Of a stretch of DNA of 64,000 nt, positions 32,869 through 49,278 are shown one piece after another. The notes under the pieces are model-generated. The model ran no database searches. It saw only the letters and a program-made list of their open reading frames with translations, and was not told the origin of the DNA. Location: the NCBI GenBank assembly GCA_965372355.1, contig CBDVBZ010000004.1, positions 5,119-69,118 of the forward strand, given 5' to 3'. A program made the position numbers and the translations under genes. Positions within the stretch are counted from its first letter, which is position 1. Each line of letters opens with the position of its first letter. The stretch comes from an uncultured bacterium (GTDB lineage Bacteria; Krumholzibacteriota; Krumholzibacteriia; WVZY01).

Positions 32869-33774
32869 CTAGACAACAACTCGTGCGGCACGCAGCCGGG
32901 CGCTTCGCGCTCTGGGGTTGGCCTCAACTTCTTGCGATGACGGTTTCACCACGCGCCGCGTCAGAACCTCCAGCGTCGCCGTGTGATCACAGGCACATAC
33001 CGGCACCCGGGGAGGACATATGCAATCACGGCTTTCCCGCCGAAAGGAGTCTTTGACAAGTCGATCTTCAAGAGAGTGATAACTTATGACAACGATCCTT
33101 GCGTTCTTGCGCAGTTTTGCAGCAAGCCCATCGAGGAATCGTTCGAGATTGCGAAGTTCATCGTTGACTACGATGCGAATCGCCTGAAACACCTTGCTCA
33201 ACAGGGCCGGTGGCGCGGGGCCCCGCAATACGGTTTCGACGGCCTGCCGGAGATCGGATGTCGTGGTCATTTCGTTTCGTTCGACCGCGGCGCGAATCTC
33301 CTTCGCGATCTTCGACGCTCCCCTCACTTCACCAAGGCGTTTTATCATCCGTGAGAGCTCGCGCTTATCGGTTCTCTCCAGCAACGCTCCGGCCGTTTCT
33401 CCCTCGGAGGACATTCGCATGTCGAGCGGTCCGTCGCTAGCGTGACTGAATCCGCGCTCGTGTCTGTCTATCTGCAGGCTCGACACACCGAGATCGACGA
33501 GCACTCCGTCCGCCCGCTCCTGCTCGATCTGGTGAAGATCAGCGTAGTTGGCTCTCACGAGTCGAACTCGCTCCTTGAAAGGTTTGAGGGTTTTCTCCGC
33601 CTCGGCGAGCGCCTGCGGATCGCGATCGATTCCGAGAACGCGCACATCCTGGTTCGCAACGAGAATCGCGGCCGTGTGTCCTCCGCCACCAACGGTGGCA
33701 TCGATCAACAGCCGCGACTGTTCGTGCAGCAGGTAGTGCACGACTTCGGTTGTCATCACCGGGGTATGGATCAT
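32869..33774 (-). CDS. rsmH: 16S rRNA (cytosine1402-N4)-methyltransferase RsmH (MraW)
   Basis: MIHTPVMTTEVVHYL...DATVGGGGHT SAM-binding motif. 301 aa. Confidence 0.95.
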   Translation of the reverse strand: MIHTPVMTTEVVHYLLHEQSRLLIDATVGGGGHTAAILVANQDVRVLGIDRDPQALAEAEKTLKPFKERVRLVRANYADLHQIEQERADGVLVDLGVSSLQIDRHERGFSHASDGPLDMRMSSEGETAGALLERTDKRELSRMIKRLGEVRGASKIAKEIRAAVERNEMTTTSDLRQAVETVLRGPAPPALLSKVFQAIRIVVNDELRNLERFLDGLAAKLRKNARIVVISYHSLEDRLVKDSFRRESRDCICPPRVPVCACDHTATLEVLTRRVVKPSSQEVEANPRARSARLRAARVVV

Positions 33775-33837: not shown

Positions 33838-34281
33838 TCAGAACAACCGATCGTTCGTTTCCTTGAACGCGCGTATCATGTCCTCGTACTTCCTCTCCAT
33901 GTGACTCTTGTGCCAAACTTCTATGTAGATATCCATATCGACAACTGCGACCGTCCCGTCGAGTCTGCACGTCTCTCGAATACGGCCCGGAATCATGAAT
34001 CTCCCCTGGCCATCGACGACAGCCGTTTCCTTGATCATCATCGCGTACCGGTACGTGTCCTTTTTTTGCTCCCCGGGTGTCCCGCTTCGCAGGGTCTGCC
34101 GGTACTCCTCCCACTGCGAGGCCGTGCGAATCTCGAGATATGGAGGGTCGGAGAGGTTGGGCACGAGGTACAGAGTGTCGCCTTTCTTGATCTCAAACGC
34201 CTCGCGGACCTCCTTCGGGAGCAGCAATCGGCCCTTGCTGTCAATGGCGTGCAGGGACTTCTCATTGAAGTGGTTGATCAT
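33838..34281 (-). CDS. mraZ: transcriptional regulator MraZ
   Basis: 147 aa with two MraZ repeats: DSKGRLLLPKEVRE and DGQGRFMIPGRIRE (DxxGR motifs). Confidence 0.95.
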   Translation of the reverse strand: MINHFNEKSLHAIDSKGRLLLPKEVREAFEIKKGDTLYLVPNLSDPPYLEIRTASQWEEYRQTLRSGTPGEQKKDTYRYAMMIKETAVVDGQGRFMIPGRIRETCRLDGTVAVVDMDIYIEVWHKSHMERKYEDMIRAFKETNDRLF

Positions 34282-34652: not shown

Positions 34653-36209
34653 TCAGTCGGAGTACACGCGATACAGCGTGAAGTAGTACGGGCCGGGCAT
34701 GCGGATACCGAGGTTCTCCATCCGCTCCACCCGGATGGCCGCCAGCCGGCAGTCACCAAAGGTCCGCCCATCCAGCCGGTTTGGCGTCGTCGCCCGGTCG
34801 ATCAGGAAGTCGACCCGCGGAAAAGCGGCGAGGTCGAGGTAGAGCCCCTGTTGAACCACTTCCTCGTATGTGTGCTCGCGCATCAGTCTCGCGGTCGCTG
34901 TATCCACCAGCCCACCGAGATCGAGAACGCGGCGCTTCGAATAGAATCCGACGTAACCGATGTCGATCGCGGCCACGACGGCGTCTTCGTCGGAGTGATT
35001 CTTGATGTGGAGAGCGAGATGTTTAAGGTTGTGGGTAAGGTCCCGCGAGAACGCGCGCGACGGTCCGACCACGAACCCGAAGTAGAGCGCGATATTCAAC
35101 GTCACCACGATGATCGCCGTGGCCGTTATCAGGGCACGCCGGCCGCTTGCCGCCCTGCCGAGTTTCCCCGCCAGATCCTCCAGGGCGACAAAACCAAGCA
35201 CCAGGGCAAAAGGAGTCGTGAGCAGCAAGTAGCGGGACAAGATCTGGACATCGAAAACAACGAACGCGACCGGCAACGCAACAATCCACAACAGCAGAAA
35301 CCGGCATTGGTCAGAGAGCACCTTCGCTCGACCGCGAAGTACCACGATGGATGCGAGGATCGCGAGGAGCAGAATACCTTCGGTACCGCCCGAGATCTCT
35401 GCGACGGGCTCCAGTCTCTGAACGAGGGAGATGGGGTTGAGACTGAACCCACCGCTCTTTGCTCCCGCGGTAAGCGGCAAAAACTGTCCGAGATGAAGTT
35501 TGGCGAAAGCGAGCCACGGCGCAATGAGTGCCGCGTAGATCGTGAGAGTGCGAACCAAACACGACCACTCGCGCCGTCTTACGGACAGAAACGCCAGCAC
35601 ATAGACGGGCACCAACAAATACGCCTCCGGACGGACAAGTGCGGCAATCGCCATAGCGAATCCAAGCAGCCACGCCTTGCGGGGCGAGTGCGACGCGTCG
35701 AGCCATGCGATACCCGCCGCCGCGATCACAAGAACCGCCGAAGCGGTTTCCATGCTCAGGGCCGTCCATCGCACGTGCCACGCGTGCGTGGCCAGCGTCA
35801 AAGCGCACATCCACGCGGTGAACACGGCAAGCCCGATCGCACGGGCGAAGCCAAACATGAGAACCACGGCGACACCGCCGCTGAGCCACGACAGAATGCG
35901 CGAGTACACAACGAGATTCTCTCCGCCCCCGAAGATGCTTCCCAACGCAGCGAGGCACAACACCCACAGGGGGCTGGTTGTCCCATACGCCACGTTGCCG
36001 GCGTTAAAGCTGTACTCCCCGCGGATGATCATGTTGTCTGCGTACTGGATGTGGATATAGGTGTCGTCGATCACACCGTGCTTCAATGGCACGAGCAGCA
36101 CGGCCAGAACAAAGACAGGGATGAGAAGCGATGCGTTTTGCCTTGCAGTCACGACGTTCGTAATCCCCTTTCTTACCCTATCGCCACAGCATTCTGGCCA
36201 GTCCACCAA
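34653..36209 (-). CDS. GT-C-fold membrane glycosyltransferase, ArnT/PMT-like (GT39/GT83-like)
   Basis: First extracytoplasmic loop GVIDDTYIHIQYADNMIIRGEYSFNAGNVAYGTTSPLWVL mirrors the ArnT/PMT pattern (DE.RYA.IAREM..GDW...G.PYFEKPPLLYW). ~11 TM helices plus a ~140-aa C-terminal soluble domain. Confidence 0.6.
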   Translation of the reverse strand: MVDWPECCGDRVRKGITNVVTARQNASLLIPVFVLAVLLVPLKHGVIDDTYIHIQYADNMIIRGEYSFNAGNVAYGTTSPLWVLCLAALGSIFGGGENLVVYSRILSWLSGGVAVVLMFGFARAIGLAVFTAWMCALTLATHAWHVRWTALSMETASAVLVIAAAGIAWLDASHSPRKAWLLGFAMAIAALVRPEAYLLVPVYVLAFLSVRRREWSCLVRTLTIYAALIAPWLAFAKLHLGQFLPLTAGAKSGGFSLNPISLVQRLEPVAEISGGTEGILLLAILASIVVLRGRAKVLSDQCRFLLLWIVALPVAFVVFDVQILSRYLLLTTPFALVLGFVALEDLAGKLGRAASGRRALITATAIIVVTLNIALYFGFVVGPSRAFSRDLTHNLKHLALHIKNHSDEDAVVAAIDIGYVGFYSKRRVLDLGGLVDTATARLMREHTYEEVVQQGLYLDLAAFPRVDFLIDRATTPNRLDGRTFGDCRLAAIRVERMENLGIRMPGPYYFTLYRVYSD

Positions 36210-37803
36210 ACCCGCTCTTTCGCAGGACCGTCTTCATCCGTTCCTTCTCGTTCTCGTCGAAGACCCGCAAAACCTTCAGCAGTCCTGGATACACCACACA
36301 CCCGACAAGAAAGAGTACCACTCTTATGACAAGAGACAAGCCTCCGGATCCAGTATCGATCAACGCCATGACGACGAGGAGAGGAAGCATCGCCACACAC
36401 ACGCCAACCAGAATACTCGCAAGAACGCGGCCTACGAAGCGGAGGTCAATAGATAGCGCGGATATTCTGACGGCGAGCACGAGTTGCACGACGCATGCAG
36501 CCAGACTCGCCAACCCTATGCCGGTCAAGTCGAGCACCGGGCCAAGAACCGCGATGAGGGCAACATAGACGATTGCCCAGGCCAGGTCGACCCGAAGCGC
36601 GCCGCGAACATGGTCCGTCGCCTTCATCACCGTTGTCAAAGGCGCGGTCGCGGTCACGATCGGTATGCAAGCGGCCAGCATGATCACGAGCGGAATGGCA
36701 GGCGTATAACTGACGCTCGAAACGAGAATGATGAGATCGCGCCCAAATGCACCGATGCTAAACGCCACGAGCACGCCGACCGCCACGCTGAACTTGAGGA
36801 ACATTCGGGCAATCGAATCGGCATCTCTTGCTCTTCCTTCGACGTGAAGCCGGGTGACCTCCGGCTGGATCGCCGTGTTCGATGCGGCAAGCAGCCGGTT
36901 TGCCGATTGTGTGATACGGGCGCCGATGTGAAACAGGGCAATGAGTTCGAGAGGGAGAACCTGTGCCACAACGTACCGGTCGACATCGGTAAAGGCCACT
37001 GCCACCAGACTGATCCCCAGCGCACCGAGAAAGTAGTCGCGGTATGCGACACCGCTCGCCGCAGCACTCGCCGCGTCCCGGCCACCGTTCTCAATACCCG
37101 TCCGCGCCACCAACCACAGAAACACCGGGATGCCGATACCGGTTGAGACAAGATGCACAACACCGAGAATCCTGAAGATCAGCGCGAGGGACAGGTCATG
37201 TCGAGCGATATACATCCACACCAATGTGGCGAGCAATGACAATAGTTCGATAGGCACCTGAACGGTGATCCTGCGCAACCCCTGCAGCCCACCATAGACG
37301 ATCTGCTTGAGAACAATCCCTAATGTCGTGATCGCAAACCACAGGAGGAGTTCACCGCTGACGACCCCGGGATCCACGAAGGAGAGCAACCACGACCGCA
37401 TACCATACGCCACAGCACCGAGCAGCGCGAACAAAACGGTCGAGACGACCAGACACACAACGCTCAGACGCATCGCCCGCGCGCCGTCGTTGGCCGATTC
37501 GTGTACGGGAAGATAACGTACCAGCAGTTGCGGCAGACCGTTGGCGGCAAGCATCGCCAGCAGGAGCGAAAAACCCCTGAGAGAGGCAAACAAACCAAAC
37601 GTATCAAGAGCCAGAAAGTTGGACAGTATCTTTATCTGAACAAGAGCGAGGAGCGTACCGAGGATAGCCTGGATGACGAGCGCCATCGCATTCGGCAGAA
37701 ATCTGGACTCTCCGTGTGACGTGGGGATGCGATCTCTCATTCGCCTGGTTGTTTGATTGAACGCCTGGCAGCCGCAGCAAATCTCAAGGGGATCGAACGC
37801 CAA
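36178..37803 (-). CDS. MOP-superfamily oligosaccharide flippase (Wzx/MurJ-like polysaccharide biosynthesis protein)
   Basis: ~14 TM helices with conserved Arg/Asp in the first helices (LVRYLP...). No soluble domains. Located inside a glycan gene cluster. Confidence 0.7.
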   Translation of the reverse strand: MAFDPLEICCGCQAFNQTTRRMRDRIPTSHGESRFLPNAMALVIQAILGTLLALVQIKILSNFLALDTFGLFASLRGFSLLLAMLAANGLPQLLVRYLPVHESANDGARAMRLSVVCLVVSTVLFALLGAVAYGMRSWLLSFVDPGVVSGELLLWFAITTLGIVLKQIVYGGLQGLRRITVQVPIELLSLLATLVWMYIARHDLSLALIFRILGVVHLVSTGIGIPVFLWLVARTGIENGGRDAASAAASGVAYRDYFLGALGISLVAVAFTDVDRYVVAQVLPLELIALFHIGARITQSANRLLAASNTAIQPEVTRLHVEGRARDADSIARMFLKFSVAVGVLVAFSIGAFGRDLIILVSSVSYTPAIPLVIMLAACIPIVTATAPLTTVMKATDHVRGALRVDLAWAIVYVALIAVLGPVLDLTGIGLASLAACVVQLVLAVRISALSIDLRFVGRVLASILVGVCVAMLPLLVVMALIDTGSGGLSLVIRVVLFLVGCVVYPGLLKVLRVFDENEKERMKTVLRKSGFGGLARMLWR

Positions 37804-38708
37804 CGAAGGACCGGGTACTCGTACCGGGCACCACCGAGCGATTCCTTGTAATCGATCAGCGTGTCCTTGTTCAGGCTGCCTCCGAGGTTATAGCGTTTGT
37901 AACCATTGTCGCACGCATGCCGGATACACGAACTATAGAGGAGTGTGCTCGCCTGGACCGATCGGCTGTCTTGTGTCGTCACACCGTTCCACGCAATCAC
38001 GGTGTCCCCAAAGTAGAAATTCAAGTGACCGCCGAGCAATTCGTCACCCGCCCGCGCGAGAAACAACCGTACGTTGCCACCACCTCTTTGCACCAATTCG
38101 ACAAACAGCGACTCGGGGTACGCGCGCGGTAGATTCCACTCGTCCGCTCGCTCCCTGTATATCCGGTAATAGCCTCTCACCTCGTCTGCAGAGGCTGTTT
38201 GCGCGACCGTAATACCTTCGCGCTCCGCCTTCCTCGTTTGACGCCGTTTTGATTTCTCGAACTGCCCGCTCCACAGCTCGTCGAAGCCAGGTTCCAGATC
38301 GATAATGTGCGTCGTCACAGTGTCGCGCGACATCCGTGATTCCGGTAAGCGATTCAGAAAGTCAACCATTGCGACCTCGTGCACATCCATTCTCCGACGC
38401 GTGCGTGCAAATCGATCGGCCAGAAGTTTCTCGACCGGGCCTGCCTCGACGGTGACGGGTCCCCCGTAAGTACCAAAGGGCAGAGACAAGCACCTCCGCA
38501 AAATACCGCTTCCGGTCACGAAGTATGGTAGATATCCGAGGAGGTTCTCACCGCTTCGTGCGACGAGACACCTGAACTTGAACTGTGGAAAGCTGTTTGT
38601 GAGGCACTCGAGCCAGACGCGCGTGTGATAGAAGCTGGCCAGTGGAGACTGACATGCTATCTCATCGAGACCATCAGGGACTCGATCCACGGTTTCTACT
38701 CGCATCAC
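37737..38708 (-). CDS. FemAB-family (Acetyltransf_6/GNAT-fold) acyl/aminoacyl transferase
   Basis: Architecture and blocks such as LLGYLPYFVTGSGILRRCLSLPFGTYGGPV and LFLARAGDELLGGHLNFYFGDTVIAWNGVT...YKRYNLGGS match FemAB/BioF2-like transferases. Adjacent to a DegT aminotransferase. Confidence 0.65.
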   Translation of the reverse strand: MMRVETVDRVPDGLDEIACQSPLASFYHTRVWLECLTNSFPQFKFRCLVARSGENLLGYLPYFVTGSGILRRCLSLPFGTYGGPVTVEAGPVEKLLADRFARTRRRMDVHEVAMVDFLNRLPESRMSRDTVTTHIIDLEPGFDELWSGQFEKSKRRQTRKAEREGITVAQTASADEVRGYYRIYRERADEWNLPRAYPESLFVELVQRGGGNVRLFLARAGDELLGGHLNFYFGDTVIAWNGVTTQDSRSVQASTLLYSSCIRHACDNGYKRYNLGGSLNKDTLIDYKESLGGARYEYPVLRWRSIPLRFAAAARRSIKQPGE

Positions 38709-39913
38709 GACCTCGAATAATGGGCGGCGATACGGTTTATCGCCCGGACGACATCATCGACGTCGCTGTCACTCATCCCCGGGAATATGGGAAGAGAGAG
38801 ACACCTGGAGTAGTACGATTCGCAGTTCGGAACATCCGCGGGTCCGTCGAGATATCGCTGAAAGAAACCGTGCTTGTACACCGGGATGAAATGGACCGAA
38901 CACCCGATGTTCTCGGCGTTGAGCGCCTTCGCGAACCGGTCCCGGTCAATGGTAAGAGCGTCGACATTGAGAAGTATGACAAAGAGGTGCCACGTGTGGA
39001 CGTTGCCCTTTCCTACCCGAGGCAGCTCGACGCAGGCCGAACCGTCGAGTTGGCTCAGATATCCCTCGGCGACAACGCGTCTGTCCTCCAACAGTTCGTC
39101 GATCCGCATGAGCTGAGACAGTCCAAGCGAGGACAGAAGGTCGCTCATATTGAACTTGTAACCAAGGGCCTCCACGTTATAGAACCACGAACCACGGTCG
39201 GAATGACGGTTCCAGCTGTCCTCAGACATACCGTGATACGACAGGACCCGGAACTGCCGAGCCAGCTCGTCGTTGTTCGTCGACAGGCATCCTCCTTCGC
39301 CGCTGGTCAGGTTCTTTGTGGCGTAAAAACTAAAGGCGGTCGCATCGCCGAATCCCCCTATCGTCTTACCGCCCGCAGCCGCGCCGAAGCTGTGTGCCGC
39401 GTCTTCGACGACCCGTATCGAATTCGATTCGGCAAGGCTGATAATTTCGTCAATCTTGCACGCCTGTCCGCCGAAATGAACCGGCATGTATACCTTGGTT
39501 TGATTTGTCGTTCGCTTCGCGAACTCTTCGGGCGCGGGTCCAAACGTCTCCATCTCGATATCGGCAAGAACGGGTTTCGCGCCGGTGTGCATAATCGCAT
39601 GGACCGTCGAAGCGAACGTGAGCGCCGATGTCACAACCTCGTCTCCAGGGCCGACACCAAGCGCGGCCAAAGCAAGATACATGGCAGCGCTGCACGAGTT
39701 CACCGACACGACGTTGCGCACACCCAGGTACTTGCGAAGATCCCTCTCGAAAAGCTGGGTCTGGGGGCCCGTTGTCAACCAGCCCGACTGCAGCGTGTCC
39801 GTGACACGCTCGATATCGCTTGCGTTGATCGACGGCCGGAAGAAGGGCAGGAACTTCTCTCTTATCGGATCGCCGCCCTCAATTGCGGGTAGTTTGTCAC
39901 GTCTGTTTCCCAA
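38705..39913 (-). CDS. DegT/DnrJ/EryC1/StrS-family PLP-dependent sugar aminotransferase
   Basis: RVVEDAAHSFGAAAGGKTIGGFGDATAFSFYATKNLTSGEGG (Lys of ATKN is the PLP-binding residue). N-terminal ...IEGGDPIREKFLPF typical of PglE/ArnB/WecE-like enzymes. Confidence 0.9.
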   Translation of the reverse strand: MGNRRDKLPAIEGGDPIREKFLPFFRPSINASDIERVTDTLQSGWLTTGPQTQLFERDLRKYLGVRNVVSVNSCSAAMYLALAALGVGPGDEVVTSALTFASTVHAIMHTGAKPVLADIEMETFGPAPEEFAKRTTNQTKVYMPVHFGGQACKIDEIISLAESNSIRVVEDAAHSFGAAAGGKTIGGFGDATAFSFYATKNLTSGEGGCLSTNNDELARQFRVLSYHGMSEDSWNRHSDRGSWFYNVEALGYKFNMSDLLSSLGLSQLMRIDELLEDRRVVAEGYLSQLDGSACVELPRVGKGNVHTWHLFVILLNVDALTIDRDRFAKALNAENIGCSVHFIPVYKHGFFQRYLDGPADVPNCESYYSRCLSLPIFPGMSDSDVDDVVRAINRIAAHYSRS

Positions 39914-39946
39914 AGTATACGTCCTCTATCTCCAGCCAATAAATGT

Positions 39947-41365
39947 TCAAGAGCTCAACTTGGCGTCCGGGATTACAGAGTCCAGAAACGAACGGATCCC
40001 GGCCCCGTCACCGCGTTCTGCAAGCTCGCCGAGCCGGCCGAGCACTTGCTGCTGATCCCAGCCGTCCGGCAAGCCAGGACGGGCTGTCAGAATGTAGTTA
40101 TGGGCTGAGTCCTCGATCAGTTCTCCATCGGCAACAAGATTCTCGTGCAGCTTCTCGCCGGGTCTGAGCCCACTTTGCTTGATCACAATGTCATCTTCCG
40201 GCCTCAGCCCGTGCAGGGCGATGAGATCCTTGGCAATCTCCATGATTTTGATCGGAGAGCCCATTTGAAGGATAAAGATCTCGCCACCTTTTCCCATCAT
40301 CGACGCCTGGATGACGAGCATACAGGCCTCTTTGAGCGTCATAAAAAAGCGAGACGCTCGCGCGTCGCTGACCGTGACGGGCCCACCGGCCCGGATCTGG
40401 CGTATGAAAAGCGGCACGACGCTTCCTCGGCTTCCCAAAACATTGCCAAAACGGACCGTGATGAGACGCGGGTTGTCTGCTTCTTCTGCCCCCTCGATCA
40501 TCAGGTATTCGGCGATCCGTTTGGTTGCGCCCATGACACCCACCGGACGGACGGCCTTATCCGTGGAGATCAGAACCAGCCGCTCGGTTTCCGCGTCACG
40601 ACAGATCCGAATGATGTTTGCGGTGCCGAAAACGTTGTTCTTTACCGCCTCTTCGGGATGACTCTCCATATAATGGACATGCTTGTGGGCGGCGGTGTGA
40701 TATACAAACTCCGGATGAAGACGATCGAACACATGCGACAAACCGTTCGCATCGCGTATATCCGCAATGACGGGTGTGATCTTCAAATGAGGATGGGCCG
40801 TGCGAAGCTCCTCCTCGATCCGGAACACTTGGTTTTCCCCCCGGCCGAGCAGGTGGATCTCGCTCAAACCAAACCTGGCCAGTTGACGGCAAATCTCCCC
40901 CCCGATCGAGCCACCGGCCCCCGTGACCATCACGGAACGTCCCGAAAGCTCTCCACCGATCGCGTCTTCATCGAACTCGACGGTTTCCCGTCCGAGCAGG
41001 TCATCCGGGTGTACTTCCCGGATCTGCTCGAGATGAACCGGCCCCTGGATGATCTCGATGAGACCTGGGACGATCTTGAATGTCACACCCGCGTCGCGGC
41101 ACAGTGCCACTACCCGGCGTACAAACTCGCGAGAGCCCGAGGGGACGGCAATGATTGCCTCTTCGACGTGTTCACGCCGGGCAACGTGCGGCAACTCACC
41201 GCTTCCCCCAAAGACGCGGAAACCCTCTATCGTCTTTCCGTGCAGGGTTGTGTCGTCGTCCAGGTATCCGACGATATCCAGTCCGGCTTCCTTGTGCGAC
41301 TGGATTTCGCGGACCACCATGATGCCGGCCTCACCGGCACCAATTATGATAACGCGTTTTGACAT
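39947..41365 (-). CDS. nucleotide-sugar 4,6-dehydratase/epimerase, PglF/CapD/WbpM family (short form)
   Basis: Rossmann VMVTGAGGSIGGEICRQL, catalytic region STDKAVRPVGVMGATKRIAEYL, and C-terminal CapD block. An N-terminal CoA-binding-like domain (VIIIGAGEAG) precedes it, but no N-terminal TM helices. Confidence 0.85.
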   Translation of the reverse strand: MSKRVIIIGAGEAGIMVVREIQSHKEAGLDIVGYLDDDTTLHGKTIEGFRVFGGSGELPHVARREHVEEAIIAVPSGSREFVRRVVALCRDAGVTFKIVPGLIEIIQGPVHLEQIREVHPDDLLGRETVEFDEDAIGGELSGRSVMVTGAGGSIGGEICRQLARFGLSEIHLLGRGENQVFRIEEELRTAHPHLKITPVIADIRDANGLSHVFDRLHPEFVYHTAAHKHVHYMESHPEEAVKNNVFGTANIIRICRDAETERLVLISTDKAVRPVGVMGATKRIAEYLMIEGAEEADNPRLITVRFGNVLGSRGSVVPLFIRQIRAGGPVTVSDARASRFFMTLKEACMLVIQASMMGKGGEIFILQMGSPIKIMEIAKDLIALHGLRPEDDIVIKQSGLRPGEKLHENLVADGELIEDSAHNYILTARPGLPDGWDQQQVLGRLGELAERGDGAGIRSFLDSVIPDAKLSS

Positions 41366-41391
41366 GGCAATTCTGCCCGGACACTCCCGAT

Positions 41392-43785
41392 CTAGCGAAT
41401 CAACGAGATCGTTCTGACGACCGTGCCCGTGTCCGCCGATATTCGAACCAGATATACACCGCTTGCCGCGAAAAACCCGGATTCCGTCGTCAGATCCCAC
41501 ACCTCGCGTTCATTGGGACGGACGTTTTCCTCCGCGTGGACCAGCTCGCCTTCCAGTGTGTAGATCTCGATGTCGACCGGGCTGTTGTGATTCGCGATCT
41601 TCAACATGGTGTGGCCCCGGCGCGGGCGAATCGGGTTTGGGTATAGATAGACCTTTGAAAGATCCGTCGGGCCCGGTTCCAATGACGACAGATCCAGTAT
41701 AGATAAACCACCCGCGGTTGCAATGTAAAGCAGGTTCTGAGTCGGATGCAGCGTGAGGGCATGACAGAGCGCATCGGCCAGCGCCGACACAACCTTCTTC
41801 TGGTCAGGAAAGAAAAGACTCAGTTGCTCCCGCCACGCGGCCTGCGTAGTGAAGGACAAGATCTCGCGCTCATTGTCCCGGCTGATCCGGTTCAGACCCA
41901 AATCGGTGGCCACCCAAAGGTTTTCGTCGTGGTCGAGCGCAAGATCCATAACGGCGTTGCTGAGTAATTCGCCCCCCAACCCACGCTTCGCTTGAAACCT
42001 TCTGAACAAACCGTTCTCGTATCCATAAACCCCCGCTTTCGTACCCACCCACACAACCCCGTCGCTCCGCACGGTCACGGCGGACACGTCTCCGCCGTCG
42101 AAGTCATCGGCGACCGTACCCAAATGGGTCCACACATCGCCCGACAGATCGAAGAGGCTGGCTTTGTCGTACCCTCCGGTTCTCCACTCCCGGACGCCGT
42201 CCGATGCGTCCGCAACCCAGACCACCCCCCCGGGGCCAAAAGCGACGTCTGTGATATCGCCCACTTGCATGCCGAGGTTTGTGCTCGTGGGCGTGATGTG
42301 CCGCCATTCGTTTCCGTCTTCGCTCAAGATACTGATGCCGCGCCATTCGTCCGGGGCTGTTCCGCCGGGGTCGACAGCGTGCAGAAACCACCGGTTGCCC
42401 GCGGGGTCTTCCATTGCCCTATGGTGTCTCAACGATCCCAAACCGTCGCCGCCACCGGATCCGATGTCGTGATGTGTCCAGATATCGTTTTCGTACGAAA
42501 GATCCAAACCATCCTCCAGCTGGTCAACCTCTATCTCCGGCACTAACGGCCTCCACAACGAACAGAACCACTTCGATCCTTGCGAATCGGCAAGTAAGGC
42601 GAGGTTCGTGGACCGAGTACTCAGATTCGTGTCACCAACGGCGGGGTTGTAGTTGAACCACGTTCCACTCGGTGTCAGTTTGCCAACGCCAAAGCTCGCA
42701 CTCGACACCCACAACGACCCATCGATATCGAATGAGCTGCGACGCAGGTCTCTGCCCGTTGGCGCGTTGGCGCGCAGATCCCGCACGGTCGTTCCATCAA
42801 AAAGGAGAAGGTATCCACCGCGGCCGCGGCTCACCTGGCCGGTTCCCATATAGACCGTCCCATCCACCATGGGTTGAAGTCCGCGGGTCTCGGCCTGGCT
42901 GTTGAGCCCGTACTTGTGGAAGATGTGGACAAAGCTATGGGTGATCCACCCGCTGCCGTCGTTTTCGAACAACCGGGAATTCGACGCCGCCCAAAGCTTC
43001 TGTCCGCCAAACTTGATCGAGAAGATCGATTCTGTGCCGAGCCCCGCCGGGATCCACGTGCCGCCAGAATCATCGAGATACGCCAGACCAGCGCTGGTAC
43101 CTACCCACAGTGCGGTGTCGTCTCTGGCAAACACGTGTGCATTGAGACTCGGGAGACCGTTCGATACCTCCTCCGTGAAGCCAAGACGGTCGCGTCTGGC
43201 GACACCGTTGTCCGTCGCAAACCACAGGAAGTCACCGTCGACAAAGACGTCCGCGATCTCCTCGCTCGGCAGACTGTCCGTGGGAAACCGGGAACTCGGA
43301 AACCCGGCAACGATGAGACCGGCGCCGGCCTTGGTGCCGTAAACAACACTGTCTCCCCAGGCCGTCACCGTTGTTATGCGATCGTCGGCAATCCCATCCC
43401 CGGTGGCCTCGAATGTGCTCACATCGAACCCCCCGGGCACGAAGTCGAGCCGGGCAATCCCCAACCGGTCGGTTCCGACCCAAAGCGAGCCCTTGCTGTC
43501 GAACGCAAGACACGTGAGAAAGCTCGTTGGAAGACCGATCGTGTTGGTAAACTGTTCGAAGGTCGAGTCGTCGGGTTGGTATACGAGAAGTCCGCCGCTC
43601 GTCGCGCAGTAGAGTTCCCCGTCCCTCATGACGATCTCCGAAATGAGGTTTGGGTTGATATGATTGACCCACTCGCTCTGCTGGGCTTCGGCGTCCTCAC
43701 GCCAGATCGTAGCGATGGCAATGAGAACGAGGAGGTGTCTCGAGATTCGACGGATTGGGCTGATCATTGGTGGTATAGCGCGCAC
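41392..43785 (-). CDS. secreted multi-bladed beta-propeller protein (Reg_prop-like repeats) with T9SS-type C-terminal sorting domain
   Basis: Signal peptide MISPIRRISRHLLVLIAIATIWREDAEAQ. Many W/G-rich repeats (GSLWVGTDRLGIARLD, TALWVGTSAGLAYLD, GVVWVGTKAGVYGY, NLWVATDLGLNRI). C-terminal ~85 aa LYPNPIRP...IEIYTLEGELVH...EVWDLTTESGFFAASGVYLVRI matches the Por/T9SS CTD (or FlgD-Ig-like) pattern. Confidence 0.75.
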   Translation of the reverse strand: MRAIPPMISPIRRISRHLLVLIAIATIWREDAEAQQSEWVNHINPNLISEIVMRDGELYCATSGGLLVYQPDDSTFEQFTNTIGLPTSFLTCLAFDSKGSLWVGTDRLGIARLDFVPGGFDVSTFEATGDGIADDRITTVTAWGDSVVYGTKAGAGLIVAGFPSSRFPTDSLPSEEIADVFVDGDFLWFATDNGVARRDRLGFTEEVSNGLPSLNAHVFARDDTALWVGTSAGLAYLDDSGGTWIPAGLGTESIFSIKFGGQKLWAASNSRLFENDGSGWITHSFVHIFHKYGLNSQAETRGLQPMVDGTVYMGTGQVSRGRGGYLLLFDGTTVRDLRANAPTGRDLRRSSFDIDGSLWVSSASFGVGKLTPSGTWFNYNPAVGDTNLSTRSTNLALLADSQGSKWFCSLWRPLVPEIEVDQLEDGLDLSYENDIWTHHDIGSGGGDGLGSLRHHRAMEDPAGNRWFLHAVDPGGTAPDEWRGISILSEDGNEWRHITPTSTNLGMQVGDITDVAFGPGGVVWVADASDGVREWRTGGYDKASLFDLSGDVWTHLGTVADDFDGGDVSAVTVRSDGVVWVGTKAGVYGYENGLFRRFQAKRGLGGELLSNAVMDLALDHDENLWVATDLGLNRISRDNEREILSFTTQAAWREQLSLFFPDQKKVVSALADALCHALTLHPTQNLLYIATAGGLSILDLSSLEPGPTDLSKVYLYPNPIRPRRGHTMLKIANHNSPVDIEIYTLEGELVHAEENVRPNEREVWDLTTESGFFAASGVYLVRISADTGTVVRTISLIR

Positions 43786-43789
43786 TACC

Positions 43790-45925
43790 CTAAAGAGGCT
43801 GCTTGAGTCTCAGGCTGCGTTTTCTTCCCATTAGAATATTGCCAAACGTCACCACAAGGATCTTCACATCCCTGCCCAACGACCAATTCCTCGTGTAGCT
43901 GGCATCCTGTGCCAGAAGATCTTCCAGGGAGATCTCGTCGTAACGCCCGGCTCTCCACAGGCCGGTCACTCCCGGGCGAACGTCAAAACGAAAGCCCGCC
44001 TTGGAATCGAGCATATCCGCATGCGACGACGGCATCGGATACGGACCGACGATGCTCAGCTTTCCTGTGACCACCAACCAAAAGAGGGGCGAATTGACGA
44101 TATCAGAGGGGCCGTTCGAACTCCTTGCATCGGCTACCGGCAACATGAAGGCCTCACCACACAACCCAAGCCTTGACTCTCGAGAGAAAGGTGTCCTCCC
44201 GCGAATCGATGCATACATAAAGTATAACACGCTAAACGGCAGCGACACTACCAGAAAAACCACACCGATGCCGATATCAAGCAGTCGTTTACCCAGTTTG
44301 TCGATCGCATAACGCGTATCCCTGCGGTAGGCGATCGCCGGACGACCGGCCAGATCGGTCACCTCAGCCTGATGGATAACGAGTCCCGAGAAGTCCGCCA
44401 CAACAGTGACATCCAGAACCCGTTTGCGCCCCATGACGATGATATCCGTCATCCGGTCCTCCGGCACGGCTCCGGGCAGCAATATGAGTTCCTGAACGCG
44501 AAACCTGTCAACAATCTCACCGATCTCAGAGACATCACCCAGGCTCCGTTGATGCTCACCGTCGGTCGCCACAATACCCACAATGTCCAGACCGCTGGAG
44601 GCGCCCCCGCGGAGCTCCTGCTCGAGCGCTCTTGCCTCTGAAAGGGCTCCTACGATGCAGACCCTCTTGAGATCGAGCTTCTGAGCGAGCAGCGCCCGGT
44701 GAAAACGCCGCAGGAGCGACCGTAGCAGCCAGTCGTAAAGTATGGCGAACGGAACCAGGAACGCGACAACCAACCTCGAGTAGCTCTGAATCTGGCTCAG
44801 ATAGGTACTGGCCATGAGCAACACGGAGGAAAAGATCACTGCCCGGCCGATGGCGAAAAGCTCGTCCACCCGCGATGTGTCACGTCGGATTCTATACAGA
44901 CCCAGAACCAAGAACGTGAAAACAAAAAGGATGTTCTGGTAAATCGTAAACTTGTCGTACGCCTGAAGCGGGAACAGCGGCTTCGCAAGAAAATCTCCGA
45001 GCGCCAGCCTCGAATAGTACGCCGATAGGAACGCGAGGTTGAACGCGACAAGGTCAGCCCCGAGAAAGAGCGTGACCTTCAACACCTCTCTGTATTTCTT
45101 GAGCGCATAGAAAACGGCGTTCCACTTCTCGTAATAACGGATCAAGCTGGCAAGATGCGCCACAAAGGGCCGGTTGAGCACCGACTTTGCACTCTCGCGG
45201 GCATGGTCATGGACCACCACGGCCTCCGGGTGATAATAGACGTCCCAGCGCTTCTGCTTCATCCGGTAGCACCAGTCGACATCCTCGAAATACAGAAAGA
45301 ACCGCTCGTCCATCATCCCGACGGACTCCACCGCTTCGCGCCGAACAAGCATGCACGCTCCCAGCACCCAGTCAACCTTTGCCGTCGTCTCGTGATTAAA
45401 ATCCAACATGAGATGTTTGGAGATCACCGAGGAGTTTCTGAAGATCCTTCCGAGAGGTGTTCTTCGGAGAAGGAGAACTCTCCAGTTATAAAACCTGCGG
45501 CAGGAATACTGGAGGTTGCCGTCGTAGAAAACCAGCTTAGGAGCGACGATACCCGCATCCGGAGTTTTCTCCATGAACTGATAGAGCGTTCTTATCGAAT
45601 GCTCCCGGATAACCGTGTCGGGATTCAGAATCAGCAAGTATCTTCCACGAGCCCGTTGTATACCCAGATTCACGGCGACCGAAAAGCCGGCGTTTCTCGT
45701 ACCGGCACTGAGATCGACCCATGGATAACAGTCTTGCACCAACTGAGAAGTGCCGTCGGAACTCGCGTTGTCCACGACAATGACTTCCGTCCGGTCGAAC
45801 ATGCTCTGCTTTTTGAGTGAATCAAGGCAGAGCCCGAGAACCGAGCGGCTGTTGTGCGTGACAATAACGACTGAAACGTCCACGGTGGAATCAGTCTCTC
45901 TGAAAGGCATCACGGAGTGATTCAA
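43790..45925 (-). CDS. bifunctional GT2 glycosyltransferase fused to WbaP-type polyprenyl-phosphate glycosylphosphotransferase (PGT) domain
   Basis: N-terminal GT2 (VSVVIVTHNSRSVLGLCLDSL...VIVVDNASSDGT...DxD-type region). Middle TM helices plus a CoA-binding-like region (RVCIVGALSEARALEQEL...IVGIVA). C-terminal Bac_transf-like block LSIVGPYP...RPGVTGLWRAGRYDEISLEDLLAQDASYTRNWSLGRDVKIL. The canonical KFRSM and SLDELPQL motifs appear absent or altered. Confidence 0.8.
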   Translation of the reverse strand: MNHSVMPFRETDSTVDVSVVIVTHNSRSVLGLCLDSLKKQSMFDRTEVIVVDNASSDGTSQLVQDCYPWVDLSAGTRNAGFSVAVNLGIQRARGRYLLILNPDTVIREHSIRTLYQFMEKTPDAGIVAPKLVFYDGNLQYSCRRFYNWRVLLLRRTPLGRIFRNSSVISKHLMLDFNHETTAKVDWVLGACMLVRREAVESVGMMDERFFLYFEDVDWCYRMKQKRWDVYYHPEAVVVHDHARESAKSVLNRPFVAHLASLIRYYEKWNAVFYALKKYREVLKVTLFLGADLVAFNLAFLSAYYSRLALGDFLAKPLFPLQAYDKFTIYQNILFVFTFLVLGLYRIRRDTSRVDELFAIGRAVIFSSVLLMASTYLSQIQSYSRLVVAFLVPFAILYDWLLRSLLRRFHRALLAQKLDLKRVCIVGALSEARALEQELRGGASSGLDIVGIVATDGEHQRSLGDVSEIGEIVDRFRVQELILLPGAVPEDRMTDIIVMGRKRVLDVTVVADFSGLVIHQAEVTDLAGRPAIAYRRDTRYAIDKLGKRLLDIGIGVVFLVVSLPFSVLYFMYASIRGRTPFSRESRLGLCGEAFMLPVADARSSNGPSDIVNSPLFWLVVTGKLSIVGPYPMPSSHADMLDSKAGFRFDVRPGVTGLWRAGRYDEISLEDLLAQDASYTRNWSLGRDVKILVVTFGNILMGRKRSLRLKQPL

Positions 45926-46616
45926 AACGAAGCTTCCACACCAGAAAAACCGCTTCCCATACGATTCGACGAGACATCTTCGAGGCCCCGCTCGTTCTGT
46001 CCACGAAGATGATCGGAATTTCCTTGATCCGGAACTTCTTTCTCCAGACGTAATGGTTCACTTCGATTTGAAAGGAATAGCCGTCACTCTTGATCTCATC
46101 GAGGGGGAGGCTCTCGAGAACCTCTCGACGAAAGCACTTGAATCCGCCGGTGGCGTCTTTTAGCGGCATACCGGTGACGAACCGCGTATAGATGTTGGCC
46201 CCCACGCTCAGAAAGAGCCTCGATAGAGGCCAGTTCATCACGGTGATGCCGTCGAGATACCTCGAGCCTAGCACGAGGTCCGCGTCCTTGATCGCCTCGA
46301 GAAATTCGGGCAACGCACCGGGATCGTGCGAGAAATCAGCATCCATCTCGAACACAAACTGCACAGAAGTGTTCTGCAGCGCCCATTTGAACCCCGCGAT
46401 ATAGGCGCTGCCCAGGCCCAGCTTACTCGGGCGTCGCAGCACGTGCAGTCGGTCGTTCGTCTTGGTCAACTCGTCGACGCGATCGCCGGTGCCATCCGGA
46501 GAGTTATCGTCGACAACGAGAACGCCGATGTCGAAATTGAGGCTGAAAATCTTCTCAATGAGCGCATCGATGTTTTCGCGCTCATTGTATGTCGGAACGA
46601 TTACGAGCGTTTCCAA
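45891..46616 (-). CDS. polyprenol-phosphate mannose/glycose synthase, Dpm1/Ppm1-like GT2 (soluble form)
   Basis: METLVIVPTYNERENI...VLVVDDNSPDGT...FEMDADFSHDP. Classic Dpm1-family sequence with no TM helices. Confidence 0.85.
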   Translation of the reverse strand: METLVIVPTYNERENIDALIEKIFSLNFDIGVLVVDDNSPDGTGDRVDELTKTNDRLHVLRRPSKLGLGSAYIAGFKWALQNTSVQFVFEMDADFSHDPGALPEFLEAIKDADLVLGSRYLDGITVMNWPLSRLFLSVGANIYTRFVTGMPLKDATGGFKCFRREVLESLPLDEIKSDGYSFQIEVNHYVWRKKFRIKEIPIIFVDRTSGASKMSRRIVWEAVFLVWKLRFESLRDAFQRD

Positions 46617-49198
46617 ATCATTCTTCCCCGCAGGTTGAAGACAACGGCAAAAAGCAGTATGCCAAGGGCTGTGGCGAACGTGATAACCGACACCGCCAGC
46701 GATTTCTTTAGCAGCGACATGTCGTAACGAAACACGATGTCATGATCGCCGGCGGGCAGCGCCACCGCCCGCAGAACGTGGTTGGCACGGATGATCTCTC
46801 CGGGCTCACCATCCACCTCGACCTGCCAGCCCGGGTAATAAATCTCGCCCAACACCATCAGCGCCGGGGACGGCAACGACGCCTGCACCCGGATCTCGTT
46901 GAAACGGTACTCCGTTATCTCCGCCGTGGCACCCTCGCGGGACACCGGCTCGATAGACGGGGCCTTCTCGAGAAGCGCGGTCCGCGACACATCGAGGCGC
47001 CTGTCGGCCAGCAACGTCTGTAGGGCCTGCGAACCCGGGCGCACCTCGAACCGATCGACAAAGAACACACGCGGCAACGCGTGTGTGTTCTCATAGACGA
47101 ACTTCTCCCGGCCAGTGCGGTCCATCCCGCGCCACAGCATCTTGAAGACCGGGTCCTCGCCGAGCGGATTCGACGTGACCAGATACCGGACATTGAGCAT
47201 GTCTGCCATCCGATAGTCGTTTCTCTGAACCGCGATATCAAGAGCATCGATGAACTCCTTGTAGATCGACAGCTTGGCGGGTTGGTAGCCGCCTATCGAC
47301 GAGATTCCGAAGTTCATGTACCGGTTCGTCTCGAAATCACCAACAACAGGGCGAGACGGATGAAGCATCGGGAAGACGCGAAACCGGCCGCCCTGTTTCT
47401 GGAGAAACTCGACCACGGCGTCCGGCTCGAGCACCCTGTTCGAATCATCTACTGACCTTATTATGCTCATCTGCGGATTTCGAAACAGCTTCTCGGGATA
47501 AATGATGTGACGGTCCACGAGATAGATATCCAGCATCCCCACACCCAGTACCGCCAGCACCAGGGCCAGTGCGCCGATATGTCGTTTGAAAAAGGCCCAG
47601 ACCAGCGACGCGGTCACGAGGAACAGTACGGAGAACTTGACAAGATCCGTAAACAGGTGTCCCCCGACGATTCGTGCGAGCTCGAGCTGTTCCCTTACCG
47701 AGCGCACGTTTCGGATCCTGTCGGCTATCGATTCGGTGAATCCGCCCGTCCAGTAGCTGTACGTGACGAGAACAATCAGCAGAACGGCCGCCGCTGCGAT
47801 CGCCGCCCTGAGCGCAGAACGGCTGCCCCTTATGGGATCGTACTTGAGCGCAGCCGATAAACCGATCCCGCAGAGCAGAACCAGCCCGAGCTGCTGAACG
47901 ATCAACACCATAACAGGCACCCGGAACTTGTTGAAATACGGGAGGAACTTGAAGAGCGGGCCATAGAGCAGGGGAAGATGCTTGCCAAAGGCGACCAGGG
48001 TCGTCACGGCCACGACAAAGACGAGAAACCATGTGAAACGCGTTCGCGCGATAAGCACGGCGACGACGGCAAAGAATGCTACGATCACACCCACGTAGTT
48101 GGCGTAATCCGTAAAAGGCATGTGCCCGAAATAGTAAAATTTGCCAAACCCGAACGCGAACGGTACCAGAAAACTCAACGTTTCGGCGGGATGAAGACTC
48201 CAGTTGGTGGCGTAGTCATAGGTGAGCCCACCTCCACCCGCGGCACCGCGGATCGAGTACTGCGCGTAGTCGTGCACGGGCAGAAACAACACCGCGCTGA
48301 TACCCAGCGCTCCCAGAACGATGAGGGCCAAAACACCAACGGCACCTCCGACATCCACCAATGCCGCGCGTTTCGCCGACGAGGCTCCACGCTCGTAGGC
48401 ATCTTTCAGGAATCCGAACACCGGGGGATCGGCTGCGCTCACCCCGCGAAACGCGTCCTTGATCTTGAGCGTCCCGAAAAAGACCACATGCATACCGATC
48501 AACGCAAACGTGTAGTAGGAGATCTGAAGATGCGACCTCAAAAACTGAAATCCGAGCAGGACCGTAAGGGCGCTCGCGTTGAGCAGAACACCCTTACCTC
48601 TCCATAAACGATCCCAGAAGAACAAGGCAAACGGCATGTACCCCACCGCGCTTGCCTGGCTACCGTGACCGTTGGCCCCTACGGCGACTTGGTTGGGCAT
48701 CCACATCATCATGACCCCAACGCCTGCCGCTATGAGGAAATTGACCCCACGGCCGATCAGGATTAACCACACGCCGAGCCCCAAGAAGAAGATGTGGAAG
48801 AGAAGCCACGTGGTGTTGGGAAACTTGAGCTTTGTGATCAGAAAACCGGTGACTACCGTGATGGGATACACATGAGGGACGTAGGTCATGCTGCCGTAAC
48901 TCGGCATCCCCGAGAACAGGTGTGGGTTCCACTGAGGGTACTCGCCCTCACTCATTGCTTTTTTGATCGGAGTCGACAGACTGAGCGCCGACTCCACGTC
49001 ACCGGCCACGAAGAGCTTGTTCTCAAAAACGAGTTCCGGGTACAGCACGCATATGGCGGCGATGAGAATAAAGATCGAGATGAGTGCCTGGTGGACAACG
49101 GGAATGCTCGCAGGCAGACCACCTTTCGCGGACGGACGATGGTTGACGGCAGCCGCCTTCTTTTCTGCGGCCCCACCTCTCTTTTTCTTCCTTTTCGC
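46601..49198 (-). CDS. YfhO-family GT-C membrane glycosyltransferase
   Basis: Start at MAKRKKKRGG. ~13 N-terminal TM helices, a large extracytoplasmic domain, and a single terminal TM helix (LAVSVITFATALGILLFAVVF) match YfhO topology. It sits among GtrB/Dpm1-like genes. Confidence 0.7.
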   Translation of the reverse strand, partial: AKRKKKRGGAAEKKAAAVNHRPSAKGGLPASIPVVHQALISIFILIAAICVLYPELVFENKLFVAGDVESALSLSTPIKKAMSEGEYPQWNPHLFSGMPSYGSMTYVPHVYPITVVTGFLITKLKFPNTTWLLFHIFFLGLGVWLILIGRGVNFLIAAGVGVMMMWMPNQVAVGANGHGSQASAVGYMPFALFFWDRLWRGKGVLLNASALTVLLGFQFLRSHLQISYYTFALIGMHVVFFGTLKIKDAFRGVSAADPPVFGFLKDAYERGASSAKRAALVDVGGAVGVLALIVLGALGISAVLFLPVHDYAQYSIRGAAGGGGLTYDYATNWSLHPAETLSFLVPFAFGFGKFYYFGHMPFTDYANYVGVIVAFFAVVAVLIARTRFTWFLVFVVAVTTLVAFGKHLPLLYGPLFKFLPYFNKFRVPVMVLIVQQLGLVLLCGIGLSAALKYDPIRGSRSALRAAIAAAAVLLIVLVTYSYWTGGFTESIADRIRNVRSVREQLELARIVGGHLFTDLVKFSVLFLVTASLVWAFFKRHIGALALVLAVLGVGMLDIYLVDRHIIYPEKLFRNPQMSIIRSVDDSNRVLEPDAVVEFLQKQGGRFRVFPMLHPSRPVVGDFETNRYMNFGISSIGGYQPAKLSIYKEFIDALDIAVQRNDYRMADMLNVRYLVTSNPLGEDPVFKMLWRGMDRTGREKFVYENTHALPRVFFVDRFEVRPGSQALQTLLADRRLDVSRTALLEKAPSIEPVSREGATAEITEYRFNEIRVQASLPSPALMVLGEIYYPGWQVEVDGEPGEIIRANHVLRAVALPAGDHDIVFRYDMSLLKKSLAVSVITFATALGILLFAVVFNLRGRMIWKRS

Positions 49199-49278
49199 CA
49201 TAGAGTTGGATCCTTCCGATGATGGTACCACACCGTCATCGGGCCGTAAATCAAGGAATGTACGTGCTTTAACGCTCC

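Follow-up and report, generated by a model that had tools for sequence, protein, structure and literature searches.

In Porphyromonas gingivalis and Tannerella forsythia, type IX secretion system (T9SS) cargo is cleaved by PorU and becomes attached, through a peptide bond, to a seryl or glycyl residue on an amino sugar of anionic lipopolysaccharide (A-LPS) (PMC7468200). The linking sugar is a 2-N-seryl or 2-N-glycyl 3-N-acetyl hexuronic acid; a vimA swap switches serine to glycine on it (PMC7468200). A-LPS is bound by PorZ and delivered to PorU (PMC8545088). The linker of Prevotella intermedia is an N-alanyl-deoxyhexose; this species lacks VimA, and its alanine-transfer route is called unknown by the authors (PMC11969387). 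VimA itself is described only as a member of the NAT_SF superfamily and a 'putative N-acetyltransferase', and none of the papers that literature searches for it returned connects it with aminoacyl-tRNA. T9SS genes have been reported from other phyla of the Fibrobacterota-Chlorobiota-Bacteroidota (FCB) group (PMC11285876). The present analysis concerns a 64 kb stretch of contig CBDVBZ010000004.1 (the window) from an uncultured Krumholzibacteriota/Latescibacterota-type bacterium, in which a tightly packed minus-strand gene row (34.6-49.3 kb) encodes a FemAB-like protein, a PorZ homologue and enzymes of amino-sugar and glycan synthesis. Together, the genes from 34653 to 49327 make up a single conserved operon for a surface glycan. 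By analogy with the VimA step, the operon may produce a linking sugar that is aminoacylated for the anchoring of cargo by PorU; confidence in this reading as a whole is evenly divided.

The likeness to the VimA/Wbp/Vim pathway would lie in a glycolipid that PorU joins to cargo and whose amino sugar bears an amino acid with its amine free. The P. gingivalis/T. forsythia pathway likewise has a DegT-family aminotransferase beside wzx (porR-porS) (PMC7468200), and both systems are T9SS-associated, the window operon through a PorZ homologue in the same operon. The sugars differ: the window route, by way of a PglF-type dehydratase, would lead to a 4-amino-4,6-dideoxy-N-acetylhexosamine (HexNAc), while the backbone in the other is a 2,3-diamino uronic acid and the route includes the deacetylase VimE.

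Aminoacylation of an amino sugar is known from the streptothricin-type BD-12 pathway. There, Sbb17/Orf11 aminoacylates the amino sugar of streptothrisamine in a Gly-tRNA-dependent reaction; a review describes Orf11 as an amino-sugar aminoacylase that depends on Gly-tRNA (PMC12945691). The window protein shares only 19% identity with Sbb17, which belongs to an actinomycete antibiotic pathway and acts on a free small molecule; in contrast, the window operon, with its flippase, GT-C glycosyltransferase and PorZ homologue, serves a cell-surface glycan. FemX of Weissella viridescens and FemX/FemA of Staphylococcus aureus are peptidoglycan enzymes. Unlike FemA/B, the window protein has no coiled-coil insertion, and its gene context is sugar modification rather than mur genes.

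Two further pathways resemble parts of the operon. The first two steps of bacillosamine synthesis in Campylobacter (PglF-PglE-PglD), and of WbpM-type routes, match the window dehydratase and DegT aminotransferase; however, the third window enzyme has the FemX fold and is not a left-handed beta-helix (LbH) acetyltransferase such as PglD or WbpD. The window dehydratase also lacks the membrane segment of PglF, and among the solved DegT enzymes ArnB is the one nearest to the aminotransferase. The Arn pathway (ArnB-ArnC-ArnT) places 4-amino-4-deoxy-L-arabinose on lipid A. The window operon has no ArnA or ArnD homologues and misses all of the equivalog cut-offs; its predicted sugar is a 6-deoxy-HexNAc derivative and its flippase is of the multidrug/oligosaccharidyl-lipid/polysaccharide (MOP) type, not ArnE/F. 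Finally, the PEP-CTERM/XrtA-associated proteins of TIGR03019 are likewise FemAB-like and found in an exopolysaccharide context. No PEP-CTERM or exosortase genes were seen with the window operon, where the partner is instead PorZ/T9SS.

The FemAB-like protein

The FemAB-like gene (37737-38705, minus strand) encodes a tandem-GNAT protein of FemABX/Sbb17 fold, 322 amino acids (aa) long from the ATG at 38705; it is a predicted aminoacyl-tRNA-dependent N-aminoacyltransferase. Its open reading frame (ORF; 37737-38708) matches Acetyltransf_6 (PF13480) at 78.8 bits (cut-off 22) and FemAB (PF02388) at 36.6 bits (cut-off 24). In a search over 5.8 billion proteins, a compact family of about 320 aa emerged, and the organisms named for its members are Krumholzibacteria or Latescibacteria. 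The wider superfamily comprises 14,769 representatives at E <=1e-3 and only 384 at <=1e-30; ten clusters sampled from the 150 best of the 14,769 come from uncultured or unnamed organisms.

The profile of an alignment of 51 family sequences matches only aminoacyl-tRNA-dependent enzymes in the PDB: Sbb17-type structures 9wqy/9wqw (E 1e-11), FemX of W. viridescens (2e-7) and FemX of S. aureus (0.012). In this alignment K288 is invariant and Y287 nearly so. The family motif 'YKESLGG' is aligned to 'FKLGFGG' of Sbb17-type enzymes and to F304-K305 of Weissella FemX, so that Y287-K288 coincide with 'vFKh' of FemX and 'rFK' of Sbb17. K305 is a key residue of FemX, which also has a positively charged tRNA-binding helix on its second GNAT domain (PMC12945691). 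In a separate comparison of 77 non-redundant homologues, the lysine is present in 76 of the 76 sequences with a residue at that position, and all 76 have F or Y before it. The helix at 150-165 has a mean net charge of +4.3 across the 77 homologues, compared with +0.4 expected, and its segment 152-163 (KSKRRQTRKAER) is aligned to 'KSKIKRPFRDG' of FemX. The [QR]xxGx[GA] pyrophosphate loop for acetyl-coenzyme A (CoA) is absent from 77/77.

The AlphaFold model is confident (predicted local distance difference test 94.2, predicted template modelling score 0.91) and contains two GNAT domains in the FemX fold. The top structural match is the amino-sugar aminoacylase, and FemX and FemA are among the closest. 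Membership in two named families is ruled out on score: the protein reaches 37.5 bits against the FemX equivalog NF047883 (cut-off 500), and 85.6 bits over residues 15-307 against TIGR03019 (cut-off 260.35), which is its best full-length NCBIfam match.

The initial annotation of this DNA had placed a FemAB enzyme where a simple acetyltransferase (PglD/WbpD) is usual. This agrees with the FemABX-fold protein found here and with Pfam and NCBIfam scans of the operon proteins, in which no LbH- or GNAT-type acetyltransferase was detected. It had proposed a comparison with FemX and FemA, and the family profile does match both FemX structures; the grouping with plain GNAT acetyltransferases that it had named as contrary evidence is not seen, either in the PDB matches or in the CoA loop. 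The protein is probably an aminoacyl-tRNA-dependent aminoacyl transferase, judging from its sequence and predicted structure. The fold and catalytic lysine are those of such enzymes; which donor, acceptor and amino acid it uses is a prediction. The balance tips slightly towards a 4-amino sugar as acceptor. N-aminoacylation of a 4-amino-4,6-dideoxy sugar, as annotated initially, is supported by fold, motifs and neighbouring genes; the 4-amino sugar does not hold as a universal partner of the family.

The PorZ homologue and its linkage to the FemAB-like gene

The PorZ homologue (41392-43785, minus strand; 797 aa; probable start Met7, about 43767) is a double beta-propeller with a T9SS type-A C-terminal domain. 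It carries Reg_prop repeats, and its best NCBIfam match is NF052228 (T9SS_PorZ), at E 1.8e-29; the C-terminal domain scores 33.9 bits against TIGR04183, above the cut-off of 23. A profile built from 20 PorZ-like proteins of several lineages matches PorZ of P. gingivalis (5m11) in one collinear stretch over residues 52-758 of 758 (E 2.2e-64), and 5m11 ranks ahead of hybrid two-component sensors. All 20 members match NF052228 (best E 8.1e-68) and 14 match the T9SS C-terminal domain model. One PorZ-like protein (locus L072) also scores above the cut-off of PF21544 (PorZ_N, the N-terminal beta-propeller).

When one genome per GTDB species was scanned, 79 loci with a FemAB-like gene came up; linkage was counted over 81 loci. 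They come from Krumholzibacteriia, Latescibacterota, Eisenbacteria, metagenome-assembled genomes (MAGs) labelled Zixibacteria and Ignavibacteria, and a few others. When the window proteins were compared with all loci by tblastn, PorZ was the most persistent neighbour of the FemAB-like gene. A PorZ-like gene is located at most 6 kb upstream in 58 of the 81 loci; the remainder consist of nine contigs too short to judge, two halves of gap-split genes and 12 real unlinked paralogues. In 18 loci the PorZ-like and FemAB-like genes abut or overlap (from an overlap to a gap of 40 nucleotides (nt)), with neither CapD nor DegT between them. These 18 are from Eisenbacteria and from the MAGs labelled Zixibacteria and Ignavibacteria. 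The Krumholzibacteriia clade and the clade with these two labels are homologous from end to end (hhalign probability 100%, E 3e-50). A homologue search seeded with an orthologue from the latter clade gave 31 matches, none of them from Bacteroidota.

Gene order is shared by contigs with orthologues at 62%, 50% and 45% identity: YfhO-like, family 2 glycosyltransferase (GT2), GT2-phosphoglycosyltransferase (PGT), PorZ, CapD, DegT, FemAB-like, Wzx, (GT4), GT-C, (methyltransferase), mraZ, mraW, ftsL, penicillin-binding protein (PBP) and murE. Wherever the contig reaches, the glycan/PorZ block in Krumholzibacteriia and Latescibacterota relatives lies directly upstream of mraZ-mraW-ftsL-PBP-murE, the start of the division and cell wall (dcw) cluster; the same adjacency is found in many Eisenbacteria and in some loci labelled Zixibacteria and Ignavibacteria.

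Several other loci contain FemAB-like genes in different surroundings. Paralogues of about 30% identity occur in the same phyla, and sometimes in the same MAGs (L036, L041, L045, L049, L051, L057, L068, L074, L078, L080 and L081); they retain the F/Y-K motif and have no PorZ or glycan context. In L041 the paralogue comes after the shikimate-pathway genes aroA-aroE-aroC-aroKB. In an Actinomycetota-labelled MAG (L053, 6425-14611), two FemAB-like genes are interleaved with two methyltransferase and three GT4 genes; DegT, GT2 and B12-radical SAM genes are next, and two more DegT-like matches nearby bring the DegT-type genes to three within about 10 kb. The cluster resembles a further candidate pathway for an aminoacyl sugar, one without a T9SS link. 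Independently of PorZ, it supports a general tie of such enzymes to amino-sugar glycans.

Two Latescibacterota 'chromosomes' seem to have the femAB-like gene split between distant positions (L027/L058 in CP070677.1 and L033/L042 in CP070631.1). This is rejected as an assembly artefact, because each break is a 100-N scaffold join whose ends overlap; the pseudo-chromosomes are mis-ordered there. In one Latescibacteria genome, a 631-aa ORF without a Pfam match is inserted between CapD and DegT (L003/L004, 6848-8743).

Sugar biosynthesis and glycan assembly genes

All five genes named in the initial annotation, from the dehydratase to the GT-C enzyme, are ORFs on the minus strand, with coordinates that are exact or within a few codons of those given here. 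Profile and fold matches for this set are far beyond chance, and the predicted 4,6-dehydratase and pyridoxal phosphate (PLP)-dependent aminotransferase next to the FemAB gene are borne out by PglF-type and ArnB-class matches.

The first enzyme (39947-41365) is a soluble PglF-type UDP-GlcNAc 4,6-dehydratase. It matches Polysacc_synt_2 at E 3.7e-105, and its closest PDB structure is Campylobacter PglF/WlaL 5bju (E 1.6e-68). Translation begins at the ATG at 41365, 27 nt after the upstream gene, whose stop codon is at 41392-41394. The retaining dehydratase PglF reportedly uses a Thr-Asp-Lys catalytic motif in which Met replaces the Tyr of short-chain dehydrogenases/reductases. The window protein keeps the segment ISTDKAVRP..MGATKR, with the T-D-K triad and Met for Tyr, and its 'LISTDKAVRPVGVMGATKR' is aligned to 'MISTDKAVRPTNIMGCTKR' of PglF. 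It lacks an N-terminal membrane domain; the 472-aa protein opens directly with a Rossmann-like 'MSKRVIIIGAGEAG'.

The second enzyme (38705-39913, minus strand) is a DegT-family PLP enzyme, a predicted sugar 4-aminotransferase of the ArnB class. It matches DegT_DnrJ_EryC1 (PF01041) over its full length (372.8 bits, E 2.6e-111). The best PDB match is ArnB 1mdo (E 2.6e-80), while the 3-aminotransferase WbpE is far weaker (2e-34). It scores under every NCBIfam equivalog cut-off, including PseC (345.6 bits; cut-off 423.5) and ArnB (331.4; cut-off 631).

After the FemAB-like gene comes a predicted Wzx-type MOP flippase (36178-37740, from the ATG at 37740). The window copy is borderline, its ORF (36178-37803) scoring 26.1 bits against Polysacc_synt (PF01943; cut-off 28.2). 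The initial assignment as a MOP flippase is backed by orthologues that are clearly of this type: the L001 copy matches PF01943 and MatE, and the L037 copy matches Polysacc_synt_3 (PF13440) at 46.9 bits (cut-off 23).

The last gene (34653-36152, minus strand) encodes a GT-C fold glycosyltransferase of the polyprenyl-phosphate-sugar-dependent type. The window copy (ORF 34653-36209) has no Pfam match; among 19 orthologues, two match PMT_2 (4e-6) and one matches PMT (1e-4). It has the membrane fold of the ArnT/PMT/AftB-like GT-C enzymes, with an invariant acidic DD/DxD motif in the first periplasmic loop. Wzy and WaaL are ruled out as identities of the 518-aa membrane protein, since the top fold matches are all GT-C enzymes. 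One homologue (P0230) is fused to an S-adenosylmethionine-dependent methyltransferase, giving 739 aa, and relatives carry a separate methyltransferase gene after that for the GT-C protein (L001 15302-16135, L003 15410-16216, L005 15250-16059). The window has neither this methyltransferase nor the GT4 that relatives carry between wzx and the GT-C gene; its own methyltransferase (57162-57920) and GT4 (49279-50418) are located further upstream.

Extent and coupling of the operon

The unit initially annotated began at the dehydratase. Its five genes stand, but its extent does not, since it left out the PorZ gene and three more genes directly upstream; the shorter unit misses the likely purpose of the operon. 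The conserved block begins with a YfhO-like large membrane protein (46601-49327, minus strand; 908 aa), a candidate GT-C enzyme. It scores 24.7 bits against Pfam YfhO, below the cut-off of 28.5; the L037 orthologue is above it at 30.5 bits, and synteny is kept in relatives. Next is a small GT2 of the polyprenyl-phosphate glycosyltransferase type (PpgS/AglJ/ArnC-like; 45891-46616, minus strand), with a Glycos_transf_2 match of E 6.4e-31. Its NCBIfam scores are all under the equivalog cut-offs (PpgS 63.6, AglJ 58.8 and ArnC 32.9 bits), and it shares 59-81% identity with the copies in relatives. The third gene (43790-45925, minus strand) fuses an N-terminal GT2 to an initiating, WbaP-like phosphoglycosyltransferase (CoA_binding_3 and Bac_transf), with scores of 88.6 bits for GT2, 74.1 for Bac_transf and 181 for TIGR03025. 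The fusion is also present in L001, L003, L005 and L037, and is kept across Krumholzibacteriia, Latescibacterota and Eisenbacteria relatives.

The downstream boundary is mraZ (33838-34281, minus strand), the first gene of the dcw cluster, which lies outside the unit; MraW follows at 32869-33774 (E 5.4e-94). In relatives, tblastn places MraZ, MraW and PBP at this position. A promoter and terminator scan of 33.5-50.5 kb gave counts equal to those of shuffled sequence and is therefore uninformative on operon boundaries.

A single translationally coupled unit had been proposed. Coupling is seen at two junctions. The DegT TGA and the femAB-like ATG share 'GTGATG' (38708-38703), in agreement with the initial placing of the DegT stop inside the femAB start region. 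Furthermore, the femAB-like TGA and the wzx ATG overlap in 'ATGA' (37740-37737), which had not been reported. Between wzx and the GT-C gene an overlap is unlikely: the 32 bp claimed there depend on a TTG start at 36209, for which the alignment of orthologues gives no support. From the sequence, a GTG at 36152 is the more likely start; it has a Shine-Dalgarno-like AAAGGGG box about 12 nt upstream and is 25 nt past the wzx stop.

Proposed pathway

From their families and conserved catalytic residues, the dehydratase and aminotransferase would convert UDP-GlcNAc to UDP-4-amino-4,6-dideoxy-HexNAc. The FemX/Sbb17-fold enzyme would then transfer an amino acid from aminoacyl-tRNA to the 4-amino group, replacing the acetylation by PglD/WbpD. 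The GT2-PGT fusion, the small polyprenyl-phosphate GT2, or both may build the aminoacyl sugar into a polyprenyl-linked glycan; Wzx would flip this glycan, and one or more GT-C enzymes would complete the glycolipid in the periplasm. PorZ would present the glycolipid to the sortase PorU, for which the free alpha-amino group, in its most likely role, would act as nucleophile, leaving T9SS cargo amide-linked to the glycolipid.

An anchoring role is proposed because a PorZ homologue lies inside the operon and a PorZ-like gene is upstream in the majority of loci. It is viewed as possible, with a little more doubt than belief, for the sugar of this operon. The order of the lipid-linked steps and the T9SS function are proposals built on what is observed: gene content, gene order, coupling, folds, and the homology and linkage of PorZ.

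Several points weigh against the proposed pathway. Many PorZ-linked orthologues, in Eisenbacteria and in MAGs labelled Zixibacteria and Ignavibacteria, have no adjacent CapD or DegT, and five loci (L010, L044, L048, L055 and L084) have CapD but no DegT between PorZ and the FemAB-like gene. The acceptor in such loci may differ or be encoded elsewhere; the 4-amino sugar is thus the likely acceptor in the window operon and not a universal partner. The window PorZ homologue, at 102.7 bits, is under the NF052228 equivalog cut-off of 260. No porU, porV or sov gene is found within the window, so that a complete T9SS in the organism is assumed from the C-terminal domain alone. The likeness to VimA is one of context, not homology, and the donor, acceptor and amino acid of the FemAB-like enzyme are all predicted from sequence. 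In addition, adjacency to the dcw cluster is an alternative association of the block in many of the sampled lineages, and gene adjacency in MAGs of uncultured organisms, as all of the relatives are, is association and not function.

Alternative explanations

The locus might instead encode an ordinary O-antigen or exopolysaccharide repeat with an N-aminoacyl amino sugar and no T9SS role, the PorZ-like protein being a co-encoded secreted double propeller that binds or processes glycan. N-aminoacyl deoxy-amino sugars do occur in T9SS-unrelated O-antigens, such as those of Escherichia coli O123 and O167 (as cited in PMC11969387), and L053 joins FemAB-like genes with DegT, glycosyltransferase and methyltransferase genes without PorZ. 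The sub-cut-off score of the window PorZ homologue, and the presence of such double propellers in hybrid two-component sensors, are also consistent with this explanation. It is nonetheless unlikely: the collinear match to PorZ includes the C-terminal domain and is better than that to the sensors, every member of the PorZ-like set matches the PorZ model, and the pairing of PorZ and FemAB-like genes is kept across several FCB lineages, even in loci from which the sugar genes have moved, which is hard to explain without a functional link. A different acceptor, namely the hydroxyl of a lipid or glycolipid as in MprF-type aminoacyl-phosphatidylglycerol synthases, would suit the orthologues without adjacent CapD and DegT, which still need an acceptor; some homologues have weak PF09924 matches, and the glycan region of the window also codes for a stand-alone LPG_synthase_TM protein (55045-56313). 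This is improbable, as FemX- and Sbb17-type structures score 6-8 Z units above MprF, the FemAB-like protein has no membrane domain, and the window gene is coupled directly to the aminotransferase that would make a free sugar amine.

Acyl-CoA-dependent transfer, by an enzyme that replaces PglD and yields an N-acetylated or N-acylated bacillosamine-type sugar, is what the database names suggest: the strongest Pfam match is an 'Acetyltransf_6 (GNAT) domain', NCBI calls homologues 'GNAT family N-acetyltransferase', the operon has no other acetyltransferase, and tandem GNATs that use acetyl-CoA exist (e.g. 5kf1, 2wpw). The PDB profile search, however, returned no CoA-dependent enzyme, and the absence of the CoA loop together with the retention of the FemX-type aromatic-lysine pair throughout the homologues makes this explanation very improbable. 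Least probable is FemX-like action on peptidoglycan precursors, with a branched stem peptide as product and the gene's position reflecting membership in the dcw cluster. The location of the block upstream of mraZ-mraW-ftsL-PBP-murE in relatives keeps such a role as a minor rival; FemX and FemA are among the closest structures, and the Joint Genome Institute (JGI) calls some homologues 'lipid II:glycine glycyltransferase'. Yet the translational coupling of the FemAB-like gene is to DegT and Wzx, with none to mur or fts genes; between it and mraZ there are always two to four glycan genes, and no dcw homologue was found within the L072 locus. The structure that matches best belongs to an amino-sugar aminoacylase, not to an enzyme of peptidoglycan. 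The organism is also diderm, given its lipid A acyltransferase, and branched stem peptides are unusual in diderms.

Other features of the window

Further upstream, the same strand-coherent glycan region contains a TMEM260-like GT-C protein with C-terminal TPR repeats (52391-54919, minus strand; PF11028, 155 bits) and the stand-alone LPG_synthase_TM protein mentioned above (MprF flippase-like; minus strand). GT4, GT2 and epimerase/dehydratase genes lie alongside these two. A lipid A biosynthesis acyltransferase is encoded at 8805-9731 on the plus strand; its presence indicates that the organism makes lipopolysaccharide. The window also codes for a valyl-tRNA synthetase, RecG, a UbiA prenyltransferase and a weak Wzi-like protein, with 489-3206 and 14302-16395 (both minus strand) among their positions. 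No tRNA genes were found within the 64 kb.

Significance

The proposed route would combine two known kinds of chemistry: VimA-type aminoacylation of a linking sugar and FemABX/Orf11-type tRNA-dependent transfer. In the T9SS literature, an amino acid on the linking sugar joins the cargo, and the donor chemistry of VimA is left undefined (PMC7468200, PMC11969387). The operon offers a concrete, testable candidate for this step in the form of aminoacyl-tRNA-dependent transfer by a FemX/Sbb17-fold enzyme. It also provides a genomic marker, a porZ gene followed by a femAB-like gene, that occurs in five or more FCB lineages beyond the classical Bacteroidota. The current label of FemAB-like genes of this kind is 'GNAT N-acetyltransferase', 'CelD/BcsL' or 'lipid II glycyltransferase'; the finding offers a rational annotation for them.

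Tentatively, the PorZ/FemAB-like pair could represent an ancestral, FCB-wide route to the T9SS sortase nucleophile by way of a lipid- or nucleotide-linked amino sugar that a FemX-fold enzyme charges from aminoacyl-tRNA, with PorZ presenting the resulting glycolipid and PorU linking cargo to it by an amide bond, a route that would include the VimA step and the alanine transfer of P. intermedia. If so, the VimA step of P. gingivalis and the transfer of alanine to the N-alanyl-deoxyhexose of P. intermedia would be the same chemistry. FemABX-type enzymes would extend from peptidoglycan branches, lipids and antibiotics to the cell-surface glycans of diderm bacteria, and aminoacyl-tRNA derived from translation would feed protein anchoring in these organisms.

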